A DNA stretch of 64,000 nucleotides from Thermodesulfobacteriota bacterium (GTDB lineage: Bacteria; Desulfobacterota; Desulfarculia; JACQYL01): positions 32,001 through 96,000 of the forward strand of contig CAXXLZ010000002.1 in assembly GCA_963675595.2 (NCBI GenBank), given 5' to 3'. The notes under the pieces were generated by a model, which searched no databases, was not told the DNA's origin, and was given only the letters and a program-made list of their open reading frames with translations. A program made the translations under genes and the position numbers. Below, piece after piece: positions 392 through 56,768 of this stretch (within the stretch, counting starts at the first letter, position 1; the number at the start of each line of letters is the position of its first letter).

Positions 392-1273
392 TTACGAAAG
401 GATCCGTTCGGACAATTCCAGGATATCGTCCCTTTTCTTCGACATCTTCAGCGCGAAATCGTCTACGACCGCCGCATCCAGCCCCAAGAGTCCAAGAGCC
501 TCGGGCAACGGCGGCGGAGGATTGGCGGAGCCCGAATATCCGAGTTCTAGGCGCACGGCCAGGTAGTCCGCCACGTGAACCAAGGCGGTTTCCAGGGCGA
601 AAGGTGCCGCAGCGGACGGCTGGTGGTGCATCTCCGTTGTGACGCAACACTCTTCAGGCAAGTGCCGCCTCTTCAGCAAGGCGGCGCCCATCTTGCCGTG
701 GGAAAGATTCACGATCTCTTCCGCCTTGAAAAAAGGCACTTCCATCACGTCGGAGAAGGTCATGAGGTCTTCGATGAGCAAAGGATCCGCCGTAAGATAG
801 GTCAACTTGCCCACGTCGTGGGCCACTCCGAGGCTGAACGCCTTTCGCTCCTCGGGAAGCTTGAGGGTTCGCGCCAGGAACTTGAACATGAACGCCGTTC
901 CCACGGAATGAAGATCGAAACTCTTCGCGTCCAGGTTCTGAACTCGAAAGCCTTCGTCGGCCAGGGAAAGCAACGAGGCGCCGAATACCACTTCCTTGAA
1001 TTGGTTGAATCCCAGGATCACGATGGCCCTGCCGATGGAGTTCACTTCCGAGCAGCCGTAAAACGGAGAGTTGATGATCCGTAGGATCTTTCGAGCTATG
1101 GACGGATCGCTCTGGATATTGTCTTCGATTTGACGAATGGACGAAAGCTCGTTCTCGAGGGTCTTAACCACGGTGGAAAAGGCCGGGGAGAAGGAAAGCA
1201 TCCCCTCTTCCGTCGCCACCAGCCGTTTGAAGGCCTCGACTCGTTCCGGAGCCAACCGGTCGCTGAAATTCAT
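392..1273 (-). CDS. HDOD domain signal-transduction protein
   Basis: IQSDPSIARKILRIINSPFYG, SIGRAIVILGF, AHDVGKL, SHGKMGAALL and EMHHQP match the HDOD fold. Confidence 0.9.
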   Translation of the reverse strand: MNFSDRLAPERVEAFKRLVATEEGMLSFSPAFSTVVKTLENELSSIRQIEDNIQSDPSIARKILRIINSPFYGCSEVNSIGRAIVILGFNQFKEVVFGASLLSLADEGFRVQNLDAKSFDLHSVGTAFMFKFLARTLKLPEERKAFSLGVAHDVGKLTYLTADPLLIEDLMTFSDVMEVPFFKAEEIVNLSHGKMGAALLKRRHLPEECCVTTEMHHQPSAAAPFALETALVHVADYLAVRLELGYSGSANPPPPLPEALGLLGLDAAVVDDFALKMSKKRDDILELSERILS

Positions 1274-2273: not shown

Positions 2274-2368
2274 GGAGAGATGGCCGAGTCGGCTGAAGGC
2301 GCTCGCCTGCTAAGCGAGTGTAGGGGCAAAAACCTCTACCGAGGGTTCGAATCCCTCTCTCTCCGCCA
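2274..2368 (+). tRNA. tRNA-Ser (anticodon GCT)
   Basis: GGAGAGA acceptor stem, CTGCTAA anticodon loop, long variable arm, GGTTCGAATCC T-arm, encoded CCA. Confidence 0.96.
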
Positions 2369-24967: not shown

Positions 24968-26026
24968 GTGGAACGCTACATAGAGAAAGAATGGCGGGCA
25001 CTCAAGTCCATCAAAGACCGGAATCGCGTCGGTGTATGGGGTTTCGGCAATGTTTCGAGGGACGTAGTTCTTTACCTGGCCGATTCGGGGCTGGGCAAAG
25101 AGATCGTCTTTTACGGGAGACCCAAAGAGCACTACGGCAATCGAGCGGGGGCGTGGGTCAGCGATCTCCGAGCGAATACGATACACGGCCCCCGGCTGGT
25201 GGGCACAAACCGTGTCAAAGGCATGGCCGACCTCGACGTGATTTTTTTCGGGGTGGGCGTCCCCCGGAGAGAAGGACAAACACGAAGAGACCTGCTCTCG
25301 GTAAATACGGAAGTGATCGCAAAAACCTGCCTCGAGGTTCGCGACCTTTACAAGAACACTCCCCCATCCGACCTGCCCGTTCTGGTATTTCTGGGGAACC
25401 CGGTAACGGCCTTGACCTGGGTGGCCTACAAAGTCACGGGCTTTCCCGCGAATCTCGTCATGGGACAGGCAGGGATATTGGATTCCCGCCGAATCTGTCA
25501 TGCCGTCTCCCTGGAACTCGGTCTTTCCGGAAACGACATGAGGGGCATTGTCTTCGGAGACCATGGAGACTCCATGGTGGTAAGCCCCCGATACTTCACT
25601 GTGGGAGGCATTCCCCTGGACGTCGTCGTCGAGAACCAAAACGTGGATCTTCGCGCCATACTCGAAGTCATTGAAGACGCTAAGAAGGGGGGAACCCATT
25701 TCGTCAACGAAACGGGTCAAAGCGCCTCCGCTGGACCGGCAAAAGCAGTAGGGCAAATGCTCCGATGCGTTGTGTCGGGACAGCCCGAGGTCCTCCCCGT
25801 AGTCGCCGTCATCCGGGAAGAATACGGCCTGCTCCGTCCTGAGGACGGTCTCGACTCCATGAGTTTCGGAGTGCCTGCGAAAATCGGTTCCGGCGGGGTC
25901 GAGCATATTTATGAGCTGCCTGTGGACGACGTAAGGGAAGACATGGAACGGTCCGCTGCGGAGATCAAGCAGGACCTTCACATTGCGGCCGAAACACTCC
26001 AAAAGAAATACGGTATCGAGGTATAG
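24968..26026 (+). CDS. mdh: Malate dehydrogenase (LDH-like family), divergent
   Basis: GVPRREGQTRRDLL (Arg specificity residue), NPV, GQAGILDSRR, GDHGDSMV. Confidence 0.85.
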   Translation: MERYIEKEWRALKSIKDRNRVGVWGFGNVSRDVVLYLADSGLGKEIVFYGRPKEHYGNRAGAWVSDLRANTIHGPRLVGTNRVKGMADLDVIFFGVGVPRREGQTRRDLLSVNTEVIAKTCLEVRDLYKNTPPSDLPVLVFLGNPVTALTWVAYKVTGFPANLVMGQAGILDSRRICHAVSLELGLSGNDMRGIVFGDHGDSMVVSPRYFTVGGIPLDVVVENQNVDLRAILEVIEDAKKGGTHFVNETGQSASAGPAKAVGQMLRCVVSGQPEVLPVVAVIREEYGLLRPEDGLDSMSFGVPAKIGSGGVEHIYELPVDDVREDMERSAAEIKQDLHIAAETLQKKYGIEV

Positions 26027-26120
26027 AGAGCATTGAGAGTCGCCGAGTCGTAGAAGCGGGCCGGCGCGCTTTCAACTCGAATCGCCACCACCACCACCCG
26101 ATGCGGGCAAGGAGTGACCG

Positions 26121-26774
26121 ATGGACAAGCCTTTGGAGCATTATTGGAAACTGCGTTTGGCCGAACTGAAGGAAGAACTGGAAGCCAACAACTTCGAAGT
26201 TCACACGGCGGACTCCGTTTCGGACGCCAAACGGATCGTGCTGGAGAACCTGATTCCAAAAATCAATCCGAAGTCCGTCTCCTGGGGCGGATCCATGACC
26301 TTCACGGCCACGGGGCTTTACGATGCGCTCAAGTCCGACGGCAGGTTCGAAGTGTTGGACGTTTTCGACCGCAATCTGACCCCTCAGGAAAACATCGAAT
26401 TGCGAAGGCGCTCTTTGTTGGTGGATCTCTATATCACTGGGACCAATGCGGTTACGGAGACCGGTAAACTGGTGAATCTGGATATGACGGGCAACCGAGT
26501 GGCGGCCATAACCTTTGGGCCCAAAAACGTTATCATACTCGTGGGTCGTAACAAGATCGTCCCCGACGATGAAGAGGCCTCTTACCGAATTAAGGACTAC
26601 GCCGCGCCCGCCAATGCCATGCGACTGGACAAAAAGACACCGTGCGTTAAGACATCCTATTGCGAGGACTGCAAGAGCCCGGACCGCGTGTGCAATACCT
26701 GGACCATTACGGAAAAATCTTTCCCCAAAGGACGGATCAAAATCGTACTCATCAACGACGTCCTCGGCTTATAA
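26121..26774 (+). CDS. LUD-domain (lactate utilisation, LutC/YkgG-like) protein
   Basis: GGSMT, TGTNAVTETGKLVNLDMTGNRVAA, GRNKIV, TPC...CEDC.SPDRVC. Confidence 0.88.
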   Translation: MDKPLEHYWKLRLAELKEELEANNFEVHTADSVSDAKRIVLENLIPKINPKSVSWGGSMTFTATGLYDALKSDGRFEVLDVFDRNLTPQENIELRRRSLLVDLYITGTNAVTETGKLVNLDMTGNRVAAITFGPKNVIILVGRNKIVPDDEEASYRIKDYAAPANAMRLDKKTPCVKTSYCEDCKSPDRVCNTWTITEKSFPKGRIKIVLINDVLGL

Positions 26775-26930
26775 GGGTGTCGGCCCGGCTGTTCCCGGAG
26801 GTGCCGCAGAATTCGGGCGGCCGACCCGACTCTCCGAAGCCGAACGTTCCAGCCGGGTGAATGAACACGAACGAGCCTCCCCGAAAGGTCGGCAAGGAGG
26901 GTGAAAGGTTTCTCAGCAATTTGGAGCCGG

Positions 26931-26974
26931 AAGAATAATCGGGACCCGGGTGCCTTCCGGCCGCCCGGGTCCCG
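26931..26974 (-). terminator. Hairpin closing the candidate sRNA
   Basis: 11-bp perfect stem CGGGACCCGGG/CCCGGGTCCCG followed by ATTATTCTT on the minus strand. Confidence 0.6.
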
Positions 26975-27098
26975 CGCGTGTGGAGGATGTCTCCGATAGC
27001 GGAGAGCATAGGAGTTGAATCCATCGTACTATTGTTTGGATGCGGCTTCCATCCAAGGGCTTCCACCCGGATGCCCAAACCGTTCCGTCGGTCGACGT
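26931..27098 (-). ncRNA. Candidate sigma54-dependent small RNA, GGA-rich
   Basis: Lies between a consensus sigma54 promoter and a strong hairpin with an A/U-rich tail; no credible ORF with SD; several GGA motifs in short hairpin loops. Ends are inferred. Confidence 0.55.
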
Positions 27099-27109
27099 TT
27101 TCCAAAGAG

Positions 27110-27124
27110 GCAATTAGCGTGCCA
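27110..27124 (-). promoter_or_regulatory. Sigma54 (-24/-12) promoter
   Basis: TGGCACG-CTAA-TTGC, exact consensus spacing. Confidence 0.8.
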
Positions 27125-27149
27125 TCCAGCAGACAATACTTGTTTACCG

Positions 27150-27162
27150 TAACTCGTTGATA
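27150..27162 (-). promoter_or_regulatory. IHF binding site
   Basis: TATCAACGAGTTA equals WATCAANNNNTTR, with AT-rich flank, 25 bp upstream of the -24 box. Confidence 0.7.
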
Positions 27163-27302
27163 ATATAGAATTTTCATGATCGGCTGGATCGTCCGGCACA
27201 TCACAGGACGTGACGGATTCTCTTACAAACTGCAAAGAAAGGCGGCACCCGAGAAATGATCATCCACGTAGGCCGTGTGAGAACACGCGGTCACGGCATG
27301 GT

Positions 27303-27764
27303 TCAGTAGATGCCCGCCTCGCATCCGGCGGCCAGGGTCCCGCCGAGTTCGCGGCATGAGCGCAATGCGGCGGCGTCCACCTCGCCTCTGATGATGACCG
27401 GCTCGCACACTTTCTTGAGGCGGTATCCCTGAACGATTCTCTCAATGGAACGCAAGGCTCCGCTGCCATCGTTACCCGCGCTGATGAACACGACATAGGG
27501 CTTTCTGAAAATCTCCTTCTTCCCCTGGGCGTCGCTGTAGGTCCTATCGAAAAAATCCTTCACCATGCCCGCCATGAATCCGAAATACTCGGGGGAGCCT
27601 ATGGCCAGCCCGTCGCACTCCATCAGGTCTTCAAGCGTCGCCTTCTCCGCCTGTTTGAGCACCACCCGCACGTTCTCCACCAAACCCGCCCCCTCGGCCG
27701 CAGCCCTGGCCAGGGCGGCCGTATGCCCGTGCTGTGAATGATAGATGATCAGGATGCTACACAT
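27303..27764 (-). CDS. Flavodoxin / WrbA-like protein
   Basis: IIYHSQHGHT FMN loop, IGSPEYFGFMAGMVKDFFDR. Confidence 0.9.
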   Translation of the reverse strand: MCSILIIYHSQHGHTAALARAAAEGAGLVENVRVVLKQAEKATLEDLMECDGLAIGSPEYFGFMAGMVKDFFDRTYSDAQGKKEIFRKPYVVFISAGNDGSGALRSIERIVQGYRLKKVCEPVIIRGEVDAAALRSCRELGGTLAAGCEAGIY

Positions 27765-27996
27765 TATGGCCCCCTTTGTTTGCTTGCGACGGTCGGCTTT
27801 TCGAAAGCAGCGGAACGCCGATATGAATCGGTCGGATGTTTGTCATTCAAATCCCCAACCCCCCGAGAAGCCGGTAGGAAGAGTATTTCGTGCACGACCG
27901 ATCCGAAGTCTTGTAAGTTGCGATCCGGCATGCCATATTCACACGCACTCATCCCTTTTTACCGCCCGTTCCGGGTCAGGAAGCTTCACAAGTCCG

Positions 27997-30519
27997 TTGT
28001 TCAAAGTCATACTTCGAATTCTCATCTGTTCGGCCCTGCTCGTGTCCCCCGCTTTGGGTTCGCCCATGGAAGACGGGGGGGAAGGCAACGTCGAGCCTCT
28101 TACGCTCTCACCCGCCGAGGCCCGCTACCGCTTGGGACGTTTTGCGGAGATACTGGAAGACCCGGAAAAGACCTGGAGCATCGACGAGGTCGCCTCTCCT
28201 CCCTTGTCCAACCGTTTCCGCCCCGTGGGCTCCGATGCAGTCAACGCCGGTGTCACCTCTTCCGCCCTTTGGATCCGTTTCACGCTCGTCGAACCGAAAA
28301 GGTCATACCCCTCCCGAGCCAAGTCCGTTCAGTGGATTCTCGACATCGGACGAACGCATTTCTACGAAGAGACTCTCTACGTGCGCGTTCCGGAGCCTCA
28401 AGAGGGATCAAGTCGTTGGACCGTGCTGAAATCGTGTGAATACGCGCCCTGCCGGGAAGGCGTGCGTCCCAGGCAACGCTATTTCGATCTACCGACCGAT
28501 ATGGAACAACCCACGACTTTCTTCCTGCGTGTCGAGGGATATAGTTCCGTCATGATCCCTCTGGAGGTATTGACCGAAAAAGCCTACCTGGAAAAATCCG
28601 GACATTGGATGTTCGCCTATGGTCTTTATTACGGCTTGATGGCGGCCATGATCCTATATAACCTCTCCGTCTTCCTCTATCTCAATGACCGGAACTACCT
28701 GTACTATATCCTTTACCAGGGGTTCGTGGTACTCTACTTTCTGACCCTCAACGATCTCACGGTCGAAAATCTTCTCCAATTCAGCGTGGAAAGCATTTCC
28801 CGGTTCTGTCTGTTCTGCTTGGCGGTCTCGCTGATTTGGGCCGCCCAGTTCTCTCGATCCTTTCTAATAACCAGGCGGAACGCCCCGTTTTGGGATCGAC
28901 TGCTGCTCGGCTTCATGGCCTTTGCAGGGCTCGTCGCCGTGCTCACTCCGTTCCATTCATACAAAGCTCTGCTGGACTACCTTAGCTTCATGGGCGGCAT
29001 CGCTCCATTCCTCACCATCGGAGCCGGCCGGAGGGCCTGGAAAAACGGGTTCCGCCCCGCCAGGTTCTTCTTGCTCGGCTGGGTGATGCTCTCCTTGGGG
29101 GCCGTGTTCTTCGTATTGAGCTTCAGAAATCTGCTGCCGTATACGCGTCTGGGGTTTCATTCCTTTCAAGTCGGGTCGGCACTGGAGGCTCTGTTGCTTT
29201 CCCTGGCCCTCGGCGATCGAGTGCGCACGTTGAGGTCCGCCAAAGAGAAGCTAGAACAAAGCACGGAGCGTTTGCGAACCATTATGGACTCGATACCAAG
29301 CGGCATATTCATTGTGGATATCGCCACGCATCGGATCGCGGAGGCCAATCTCGCCGCCGCAGAAATGGTGGGCTTGCCCAGGGACGATTTGTTGGGAACC
29401 GTTTGTACGGAGTTTCTGGGTCGGGCTGAGAGAGGGAAAAGTCCCGTCACCGACCTTCAGCTGACCTGCGACCAGTCCGAAAGAGAATTGGTCAATTCCC
29501 ATGGGGAGCGAATTCCCATTCTCAGGAACGCCGCAATCATTGAAGTCGAAGGCCGAAAAATGATCATCGAGAGCTTTGTGGACATTTCGGATAGAAAGAC
29601 CGCGGAGCTCAACCTCGAGCAGCATCTCAATCTGACCCAGGCCGCTTTGGACTCCACAGTGAACGCTTTGATCGTGCTGGACAAGCGTCAAAACGTCATT
29701 GCGATCAACCGGCGTTTTTTCGATATATGGGGTTTGCCCGACTCCTGGCCGACCATGCCCGACCCGGGCAAGCGGATCGAGCTTCTTTCGGTCCAGGTAA
29801 AACATCCTGAACGGTTCCTCCAAAGTGCCAACGAGCTTTTTGTTGATCTCGAACGCGAAGAGTGCGGCTGGATTGAGATGAATGACGGGCGTATGATTGA
29901 GTATTACGCACTTCCCTATCGTATGGCGAACCGGACCATCGGCAGGCTCTTCACCTATCTTGACATCACCGAACGAAAGAAGATGGAGACGGAGCTCAGG
30001 CGACTCGCCGTCACCGATTCTCTAACGGGGATTTTTAATCGTCGCCATTTCATGACCTTGGCTCACCGTGAATTTCTCAGATCACGCAGGTATCGATCAC
30101 GCTTTTCCATTCTTCTCCTCGACATCGACCACTTCAAGAACATCAACGATACCTATGGGCATTCCGCCGGTGACGAGCTTCTCAGACGAATGGCTCAGGA
30201 AGTACGTAACACGCTTCGCGGAGCCGATATTTTTGGAAGACTGGGAGGTGAGGAATTCGCGATCATACTTCCTGAAACCAACAGCGGCCGGGCCATGGAA
30301 GCGGCCGAAAGACTTCGCGCCCTCCTATCCCAAGTGAGAATAGATGCGGTATCGGGACCGGTAGGAGCAACGGTAAGCATCGGCGTGGCAAGCAACAGGG
30401 ACGAGGACGATTCCCTTGAAAGCATTTTGAGGCGAGCGGATCAGGCCATGTACCAGGCCAAAGCCTCCGGCCGAGATCGAGTGGAGTCCGCCGATCCCGT
30501 CGATTCCATGTCGAGCTGA
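27997..30519 (+). CDS. Diguanylate cyclase: 7TM-DISMED2 / 7TM-DISM / 2xPAS / GGDEF
   Basis: ALWIRF, YYGLMAAMILYNL, ARFFLLGW, ALLLSLALGDR, two PAS-like segments, DIDHFK.IND.YGH, RGAD I-site, GGEEF; start uncertain (TTG 27997 precedes a signal peptide, ORF open from 27745). Confidence 0.92.
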   Translation: MFKVILRILICSALLVSPALGSPMEDGGEGNVEPLTLSPAEARYRLGRFAEILEDPEKTWSIDEVASPPLSNRFRPVGSDAVNAGVTSSALWIRFTLVEPKRSYPSRAKSVQWILDIGRTHFYEETLYVRVPEPQEGSSRWTVLKSCEYAPCREGVRPRQRYFDLPTDMEQPTTFFLRVEGYSSVMIPLEVLTEKAYLEKSGHWMFAYGLYYGLMAAMILYNLSVFLYLNDRNYLYYILYQGFVVLYFLTLNDLTVENLLQFSVESISRFCLFCLAVSLIWAAQFSRSFLITRRNAPFWDRLLLGFMAFAGLVAVLTPFHSYKALLDYLSFMGGIAPFLTIGAGRRAWKNGFRPARFFLLGWVMLSLGAVFFVLSFRNLLPYTRLGFHSFQVGSALEALLLSLALGDRVRTLRSAKEKLEQSTERLRTIMDSIPSGIFIVDIATHRIAEANLAAAEMVGLPRDDLLGTVCTEFLGRAERGKSPVTDLQLTCDQSERELVNSHGERIPILRNAAIIEVEGRKMIIESFVDISDRKTAELNLEQHLNLTQAALDSTVNALIVLDKRQNVIAINRRFFDIWGLPDSWPTMPDPGKRIELLSVQVKHPERFLQSANELFVDLEREECGWIEMNDGRMIEYYALPYRMANRTIGRLFTYLDITERKKMETELRRLAVTDSLTGIFNRRHFMTLAHREFLRSRRYRSRFSILLLDIDHFKNINDTYGHSAGDELLRRMAQEVRNTLRGADIFGRLGGEEFAIILPETNSGRAMEAAERLRALLSQVRIDAVSGPVGATVSIGVASNRDEDDSLESILRRADQAMYQAKASGRDRVESADPVDSMSS

Positions 30520-49393: not shown

Positions 49394-49410
49394 AGCAAGG
49401 ATCGTACCAA
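49394..49410 (-). promoter_or_regulatory. Sigma54 promoter of the motA operon
   Basis: TTGGTACG-ATCC-TTGCT, 45 bp upstream of the motA ATG. Confidence 0.75.
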
Positions 49411-56752: not shown

Positions 56753-56768
56753 AGCAAGGGACGTGCCG
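56753..56768 (-). promoter_or_regulatory. Sigma54 promoter of fliK-flgD-flgE
   Basis: CGGCACG-TCCC-TTGCT. Confidence 0.8.

Follow-up and report, generated by a model that had tools for sequence, protein, structure and literature searches.

The DNA examined was a window of 64 kb (G000:C2:32001-96000, the whole stretch analysed; coordinates given without a contig refer to it) from a Thermodesulfobacteriota genome of 6.79 Mb, which has 56% G+C, is assembled into three contigs and is 98% complete. The analysis concerns a 528-bp gap (26775-27302) located between two convergent genes. On the plus strand, a LUD-domain gene (26121-26774; Pfam LUD_dom, E = 5e-54) closes an Ldh/Mdh-LUD unit, and on the minus strand a flavodoxin-like gene (27303-27764; Pfam FMN_red / Flavodoxin_1) lies upstream of, and on the same strand as, a candidate small RNA (sRNA). 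All of the elements of interest are contained in this gap. A sequence-only reading had described a sigma-54 promoter, an IHF site, a GC-rich hairpin and a GGA-rich transcript on its minus strand, and every one of these elements was recovered in its place. The sequence elements, their geometry, their recurrence in the genome and in related genomes, and the lack of a coding signal make it, on balance, probable that the gap holds a free-standing, activator-dependent sigma-54 unit which would produce a non-coding RNA of ~170 nt.

The promoter element, TGGCACGCTAATTGC, is located at 27124-27110 on the minus strand and is a perfect TGGCACG-N4-TTGC, with the GG and GC doublets of a sigma-54 promoter spaced 10 bp apart (TGGCAC-N5-TTGC). 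It proved to be the only perfect copy in the window, in which three matches with at most one mismatch were found against 0.97 expected. Genome-wide, ten perfect copies were present (seven intergenic, five no more than 300 nt from the start of a co-oriented gene), compared with two in the reversed genome. Genes were taken from a rough whole-genome model of 5159 open reading frames (ORFs), picked by a codon log-odds score and covering 83% of the DNA, with ~17% left as intergenic. An IHF consensus, TATCAACGAGTTA (27162-27150, minus strand), was confirmed between the upstream activator site and the -24/-12 element, 25 nt upstream of the promoter, and is the single perfect match to WATCAANNNNTTR in the window. 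Shuffled sequences averaged 1.21 such matches per window; the count is therefore not enriched, and the weight of the site rests on its position. The genome encodes rpoN (one Sigma54_DBD gene), five genes of the HU/IHF family, and enhancer-binding proteins with 46 Sigma54_activat matches, ~42 of which were strong. Elsewhere in the window, two sigma-54-like elements with one mismatch were observed on the minus strand, at 49395-49409 and 56754-56768; the former sits 46 nt ahead of an ORF resembling a MotA-type flagellar motor protein, as judged from its translation alone.

Further upstream, at 27211-27236 on the minus strand and 109 nt before the promoter, lies the palindrome TTTGCA-GTT-TGTAAG followed by AGAATCCGTCA, which is a probable binding site of an NtrC-type enhancer-binding protein. 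Its recurrent form, TT(T/G)(A/G)CA-N3-TGTAA(A/G), emerged when the sequences around every intergenic sigma-54-like site were displayed. The palindrome core, written as a loose regular expression, gave 220 matches in the genome. A sigma-54-like promoter followed seven of them at 60-200 nt, and every such pair was spaced 109-117 nt apart (109 at the candidate sRNA locus and 114-117 at the other six). Two more sites, C2:1434859 and C2:1539499, were seen by eye to carry a variant of the palindrome. The combined pattern TGTAA-N95-112-TGGCAY-N5-TTGC matched the genome seven times, against no match for the pattern read backwards, and at least one match was present in 25 of the 41 genomes of the class sample, against one genome for the control. 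The full palindrome occurred in six related genomes (G001, G002, G013, G014, G030 and G040), often in the form cTTTTACA-N3-TGTAAAAA with CGAC ~6 nt further on.

Sites combining the palindrome with a sigma-54 promoter (loci L098-L104) were located at C1:436594-436725, C1:948950-949078, C3:207410-207540 and C2:1434749-1434873 on the plus strand, and at C1:1672003-1672133, C1:703683-703798 and C2:2167751-2167882 on the minus strand. The palindrome-bearing promoters serve two tandem-Usp proteins, preceded by an ORF of 61 aa; a Usp protein, with trehalose-phosphatase encoded farther along; a porin; an FAD-binding oxidoreductase (flavoprotein) with an N-terminus resembling a TAT signal; and a unit with a dCache histidine kinase, which starts just after the candidate activator gene described below. 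From these sequences, TTTACA-N3-TGTAAA at 109-117 nt before sigma-54 promoters appears to define a regulon that is conserved, together with one NtrC-type activator, in several related families. In a word search of the literature for the palindrome, none of the papers listed named the motif, and PMC545781 contained BirA and HcpR sites only. The candidate RNA had also been proposed as a possible tie between CsrA-type control and the sigma-54 motility programme, a link to motility that was not supported: the activator site is common to Usp, porin, flavoprotein and kinase promoters, and the MotA-type promoter at 49395-49409 has no TGTAA within 120 nt upstream.

A chance assembly of motifs without an active promoter was considered at this point and is, in our view, quite unlikely. 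It would agree with the two perfect -24/-12 elements that the reversed genome still yields, and with an activator-promoter spacing that is 7-8 bp shorter than in most members of the regulon. Measured from TGTAA to TTGC, most palindromic sites span 125-131 nt and the candidate locus 118 nt, but two G014 sites span 117 nt, which shows that a spacing class shorter by roughly one helical turn exists. Three independent elements in canonical order and at canonical distances further argue against chance, and a rough arithmetic gives ~3e-4 for a palindrome core in the right 20-nt zone and ~2e-3 for an IHF site within 100 nt. The locus presents the -24/-12 doublets, the IHF site and the shared upstream activator site in a genome that encodes rpoN and activators. 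Given the canonical order and distances of activator site, IHF site and -24/-12 element, the predicted sigma-54 promoter is very probably functional.

The best candidate for the activator is encoded at C1:434720-436282 of the same genome (G000). Its product combines REC, Sigma54_activat and HTH_8 domains (NtrC-type), and a histidine kinase gene lies directly upstream. Clear orthologues were found in nine of the 40 relatives at 55-70% identity, with paralogues at no more than 48%. All nine orthologue-bearing genomes had matches to the combined pattern, 32 in total, whereas 15 of the 31 relatives without a clear orthologue had such matches, 22 in total and mostly non-palindromic. A palindrome-bearing promoter was located no more than 2.2 kb from the activator gene, both in its own genome and in five of the nine orthologue-bearing relatives, where the distances were 177 nt in G002, ~0.9 kb in G013, 1.6 kb in G014, 1.7 kb in G040 and 2.2 kb in G001. 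As the co-occurrence was counted among kin genomes, the assignment is best taken as a lead rather than a test. The Sigma54_activat gene nearest to the locus is at C2:96983, ~38 kb off, and the candidate activator is encoded on another contig.

The predicted transcript extends over 26927-27098 on the minus strand (~170 nt), with its start placed from the -12 GC and its end inside a U-rich tail. The 11-bp GC hairpin with an A/U-rich tail that had been described ~170 nt downstream of the promoter was confirmed. The terminator-like hairpin and its tail occupy 26930-26974 on the minus strand; the arms, 26940-26950 and 26964-26974, form a perfect 11-bp GC-rich stem around a 13-nt loop with an inner GGAA loop, and AUUAUUCUU follows on the minus strand. 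A simple terminator scan with a loop limit of 3-8 nt passed over this hairpin owing to its 13-nt loop. When terminators were defined as strand-specific perfect stems of at least 10 bp with six or more T among the following 10 nt, 99 were present in the genome, 92 of them intergenic, and the hairpin at 26940-26974 qualifies on the minus strand only. The sigma-54 promoter and the terminator are thus both more than chance would provide. The flavodoxin gene is without an obvious terminator of its own, and for this reason its transcripts may end at the same hairpin. If the terminator is shared in this way, the candidate would be an sRNA of the 3' region with its own promoter.

The minus strand from ~27098 carries no convincing coding potential. 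Among ORFs of at least 5 codons starting between the predicted start and the hairpin, none was preceded by a Shine-Dalgarno-like (SD) sequence, in agreement with the earlier statement that no SD-led ORF lies there. We regard a small protein gene as scarcely credible, whether in the form of a 7-aa ORF (MEAASKQ), a 90-aa frame from the ATG at 27024 or a 38-aa frame from the GTG at 26868. The minus strand does hold an open frame of 150 aa (26752-27204), and the GTG at 26868 is the only SD-led start, with GGGGAGG 7 nt ahead of it. However, the coding score was 0.00 for the 150-aa frame and 0.00-0.05 for its sub-frames, against 0.27±0.13 for in-frame pieces of genes and -0.49 for out-of-frame pieces. 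The frame contains no Pfam domain and has no homologue at E≤0.01 (45 candidates; proteins of 82-263 aa from a collection of 5.8 billion proteins). It runs through the hairpin into the LUD gene, and the GTG frame starts past the hairpin and is without coding score. Since there is no coding signal and the hairpin belongs to the terminator class on the minus strand only, a terminated RNA of ~170 nt would be the simplest product.

The promoter could also have another main effect, in which transcription would proceed into the 3' end of the Ldh/Mdh-LUD unit and act on it by interference or as an antisense RNA, with the hairpin as a partial stop. The promoter is aimed at the LUD gene at a distance of 336 nt, only 6 of the 10 nt that follow the hairpin are U, and no clear plus-strand terminator was found for LUD. 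The hairpin and tail, however, belong to a class of which 93% (92 of 99) is intergenic, and they are oriented for the minus strand, on which no gene was found over ~2.6 kb past the hairpin. We therefore consider a convergent or antisense regulator unlikely, and the free-standing unit with a terminated non-coding RNA remains the preferred reading.

Folding of the minus-strand RNA gave five local hairpins plus the terminator, with a minimum free energy (MFE) of -74 kcal/mol (z = -2.63). Hairpin 1 (27079-27092, minus strand), ACCG-ACGGAA-CGGU in the MFE fold, presents a GGA in its loop, and hairpin 3 (27036-27056, minus strand), UUGGAUG-GAAGCCG-CAUCCAA, differs between strains. The stretch CCUCCACACGCG (26975-26986, minus strand), which contains an anti-Shine-Dalgarno-like CCUCC, is unpaired in both the MFE and the centroid folds and may serve as a seed according to these models.

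Several observations weigh against a functional RNA of this kind. The hairpin at 26940-26974 could be merely the terminator of the flavodoxin gene, and the activator assignment draws on co-occurrence in related genomes, which are not independent of one another. Both strands of the gap fold better than shuffled sequences (z = -2.63 for the minus strand and -3.11 for the plus strand), largely owing to the terminator hairpin, and as the plus strand folds as well, folding does not pick a strand. With regard to the class of Hfq-dependent trans-acting sRNAs, no PF17209 match for Hfq was found in the 98% complete genome. A duplex-energy scan of three unpaired segments against 5157 start regions performed no better than shuffled seeds (mononucleotide shuffles, five per seed, on one third of the targets). 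The RNA has no paralogue in its own genome, and a BLAST search of the gap against the 40 relatives gave no genuine homologue. An nhmmer search downstream of 20 promoters of the same class in the relatives gave only E≥2.9. A covariance model, built from the single sequence and its MFE hairpins, produced matches of no more than 20.4 bits, and the four weak full-length ones were rejected, as all lay in long open frames and none had an upstream -24/-12 element. In a related strain, four of the five differences within 26986-27127 fall in hairpin 3 (27042, 27049, 27053 and 27056), and they are non-compensatory: two break pairs, one turns a G-C pair into G-U and one removes the loop GGA.

The wider searches gave a similar picture. 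The single BLAST match, in G002, was discarded since an ORF exceeding 1000 aa encloses it. Rfam covariance models gave no match at E≤10 over 26000-28000. The LUD protein has its closest relatives in Desulfobacterales, Syntrophobacter and other Thermodesulfobacteriota metagenome-assembled genomes (MAGs), at identities of no more than 72-73% among the best 80 loci of each contig collection (genome and metagenome), so the lineage is poorly sampled; the GTDB family of the host contains two other genomes. Among these best 80 genome and best 80 metagenome LUD loci, no comparable convergent orphan promoter was seen, and the few -24/-12-like sites near LUD in other loci serve genes. An nhmmer search of the gap against 160 LUD loci found no homologue beyond one weak match in a Syntrophobacter MAG (L047:1991-2120, minus strand, E 0.009; L180:2066-2195, minus strand, E 0.006), which we take to be two copies of one sequence, as both have the same alignment coordinates and score. 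This stretch is purine-rich, with AGG/GAAGG repeats, is intergenic after a kinase/receiver gene and has no -24/-12 motif; the match is probably due to chance. When aligned with the predicted RNAs of two further promoters of the class, the candidate showed no homology past the promoter; those two share a stretch of 22 nt with each other. Three same-class promoters in relatives that lack an SD-led ORF (L228, L231 and L233) presented no clear sRNA picture, and L228 holds a frame of at least 122 aa. One of the gene-serving sites near LUD lies in an unrelated metagenome contig (L135:820-1420, minus strand), where a sigma-54-like promoter convergent with LUD drives two small SD-led ORFs of ~70-94 aa, both rich in Cys and with CxxC pairs.

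The related strain (organism B) is known from contigs of public runs, one of which spans 3001 bases with 88 differences (~3%). The 40 of 100 strain differences that were listed leave the -24/-12 element, the IHF site and the activator site untouched, and six of them lie elsewhere in the promoter region. The substitutions in hairpin 3 change its local fold from -8.6 to -0.3 kcal/mol and reduce the GGA triplets from eight to six. Owing to these substitutions at ~3% divergence, the predicted 5' half of the transcript is seen as being without visible structural constraint. The four substitutions within 15 nt (27042-27056) form a local hot spot, for which relaxed constraint, recombination and selection are possible causes.

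These data bear most directly on the possibility that the promoter is real and its product functionless or young, a regulon promoter having arisen or been left behind, for example by gene loss, in the 3' region of the flavodoxin gene. Nothing searched showed conservation past the species, and the changes in the transcript are clustered and non-compensatory, while the three promoter elements (activator site, IHF site and -24/-12) are spared by the 40 of 100 differences listed. On the other hand, the unit lacks no part, from the activator and IHF sites to the promoter and the terminator; species-specificity is common among bona fide sRNAs; and the conservation picture is incomplete, as 40 of 100 strain differences are listed. 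We judge a functionless or young product to be fairly unlikely, though, like antisense read-through into the LUD unit, a serious alternative. The candidate sRNA itself, as far as comparison of genomes can tell, is most likely species-restricted.

The sequence-only reading had further proposed that the RNA acts as a sponge, in which GGA triplets displayed in loops titrate CsrA/RsmA. The eight GGA triplets (~1 per 22 nt of the 174-nt predicted transcript) and the four small hairpins quoted in its support were all found in the sequence. Three triplets fit A-N-GGA (ACGGAA, AUGGAA and AUGGAU), and two or three are located in or at loops. The sense strand has four GGAA and the antisense strand one, which corresponds to a 5% level, and a second orphan promoter of the class (C2:1539499) is followed by sequence that is GGAA-rich on the sense strand only. 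The genome also has the csrA gene that such a role would presuppose: a single copy was found (87.2 bits), with fliW directly after it. However, 5.7% of the intergenic 174-nt windows of the genome reach at least eight GGA triplets, and the opposite strand of the locus holds eight as well, as had been cautioned from the start, so that the richness in GGA is only marginally above chance. In the MFE fold, two of the eight triplets are fully unpaired, one is partly unpaired and five are paired.

The remaining evidence on the sponge was likewise unfavourable. Neither a Csr/Rsm family nor any other Rfam family matched at E≤10. Conservation of the GGA loops in relatives was not observed either, as the ~3% divergent strain lacks hairpin 3 and two of the eight triplets, and no homologue was found farther out. 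The promoter class is not flagellar. The csrA locus (L001, G000:C2:1770227-1773382) consists of a flagellin-like gene, csrA (86 aa, N55), fliW and a LysM protein gene. PMC13407953 links the C-terminal extension and N55 of CsrA to FliW binding, and describes CsrB/C-type sRNAs as not characterised in Geobacter. By analogy with the FliW-antagonised type in that source, and given its length of 86 aa, its N55 and the adjacent fliW, the sole host CsrA is assigned to the FliW-antagonised arrangement. A CsrA/RsmA sponge is therefore very improbable. A related proposal, that this RNA and the RNA from C2:1539499 are paired decoys of a FliW-type CsrA under sigma-54/two-component control, as RsmY is with RsmZ, appears equally far-fetched. 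Were a decoy role true, CsrA would for the first time have an RNA antagonist in a lineage where the protein FliW is the only antagonist known, and CsrA-controlled translation would be coupled to a stress regulon (Usp, porin, trehalose).

Of the original proposal of an unannotated regulatory RNA under sigma-54 control, the sigma-54-dependent RNA is thus retained as likely in silico, while its CsrA role and its link to motility are not. In the mechanism we propose, a phosphorylated NtrC-type response regulator, with C1:434720-436282 as the best candidate, would bind the palindrome at 27211-27236, and IHF would bend the DNA at 27150-27162. Sigma-54 RNA polymerase at 27110-27124 would then open the promoter and start near 27098, and the GC hairpin (26940-26974), together with its U-rich tail, would end transcription. 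The RNA would be co-induced with the Usp proteins, the trehalose-phosphatase operon, the porin, the TAT-signal flavoprotein and the kinase operon. It may act as a lineage-specific riboregulator of the activator's response, through Hfq-independent base-pairing via an unpaired stretch such as CCUCCACACGCG, in which CCUCC is complementary to the Shine-Dalgarno core and which lies just before the terminator. Base-pairing is the most likely mechanism, although it is preferred by default rather than on evidence.

Other features of the genome were recorded alongside. The second orphan sigma-54 promoter, TGGCACGTATCTTGC, lies at 401-415 (plus strand) of locus L105 (G000:C2:1539099-1542699); it has a degenerate palindrome, and there is no co-oriented gene for 375 nt. 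Its predicted transcript holds seven GGA and five GGAA on the sense strand, against one and none on the antisense strand, and has no Rfam match. A further orphan promoter, TGGCACCGTACTTGC (C1:745561-745575, minus strand; locus L106, G000:C1:742375-745975), has no clear palindrome upstream. Its predicted transcript, ~60 nt long and CU-rich in the 5' part (CCCUCUCUUCUCCUUC), has a perfect intrinsic terminator and converges on a gene of the plus strand; it has no Rfam match and is an sRNA candidate. Two c-di-GMP-I-GGC riboswitch aptamers (RF03167, 75-77 bits) were found at L247:290-364 (plus strand) and L248:513-587 (minus strand), in G000:C2:3021700-3022500 and 1937700-1938500, respectively, each shortly downstream of a sigma-54-like TGGTA(C/T)G-N4-TTGC. 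Across the whole window, two tRNA genes, at 2157-2246 and 2274-2365 (plus strand), were the only Rfam matches to exceed the gathering score. At 27745-27764, the flavodoxin ORF and a divergent 924-aa 7TMR-DISM/PAS/GGDEF ORF share 20 nt at their listed 5' ends, and because of this overlap at least one of the two start codons is probably located further in.

What makes the candidate RNA notable is chiefly its promoter, which links it to a conserved two-component regulon. If expressed, it would add a riboregulator to a two-component/sigma-54 regulon that is apparently conserved across several families of this Desulfobacterota class, in which, to our knowledge, almost no sRNA has been studied. The defined promoter, the activator site and the candidate activator provide a handle for experiments. 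No principle is changed, since the RNA is lineage-specific and of a kind already documented. Of more use is a by-product, the regulon signature TTTACA-N3-TGTAAA spaced at a fixed distance from -24/-12 promoters, with which targets of the activator could be annotated in many uncultured genomes.

Among known systems, CsrB, CsrC, RsmX, RsmY and RsmZ are likewise small, carry several GGA triplets, some of them in hairpin loops, and end in a Rho-independent terminator. These RNAs depend on GacA/UvrY, whereas the candidate has a promoter that is predicted to depend on sigma-54 and an activator, and its host has a FliW-partnered CsrA. The candidate also differs from them in having no Rfam match and in a GGA density that is unexceptional, not strand-specific and not kept in a close strain. 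The sRNAs MicL and DapZ represent the type that arises from a 3' region with its own promoter. In both cases and in the present one, a promoter follows or accompanies a same-strand gene with which the terminator is possibly common; the promoter of the candidate, unlike theirs, lies after the stop codon and not within the coding sequence.

Small RNAs that depend on sigma-54 are known from other bacteria, with Qrr of Vibrio and CrcZ and NrsZ of Pseudomonas as examples, and an RpoN-dependent flagellar sRNA has reportedly been found in Campylobacter jejuni. The candidate resembles them as an sRNA gene with its own -24/-12 promoter and a two-component activator of the NtrC family. It shares no sequence or structure similarity with them, and its regulon context is one of Usp, porin and trehalose genes. 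Qrr depends on Hfq, which was not found in the host genome.

The arrangement closest in lineage comes from Desulfovibrio vulgaris Hildenborough, whose sigma-54 regulome, according to PMC4641369, includes four non-coding RNAs, located downstream of DVU0653 and DVU0679 and upstream of DVU3282 and DVU2357. The likeness is one of arrangement: as that source presents them, these RNAs belong to the same phylum-level group, have a -24/-12 element and an activator site, contain no ORF, are members of the regulon of an enhancer-binding protein, and have been assigned to post-transcriptional regulation (PMC4641369). Two of the D. vulgaris RNAs are described there as lying directly downstream of the activator gene; here, in contrast, the nearest activator gene is ~38 kb away and the candidate activator is on another contig. 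With these similarities and differences in view, the candidate can plausibly be placed as a lineage-restricted sigma-54-dependent sRNA, of the kind known in Desulfovibrio, Vibrio and Pseudomonas.

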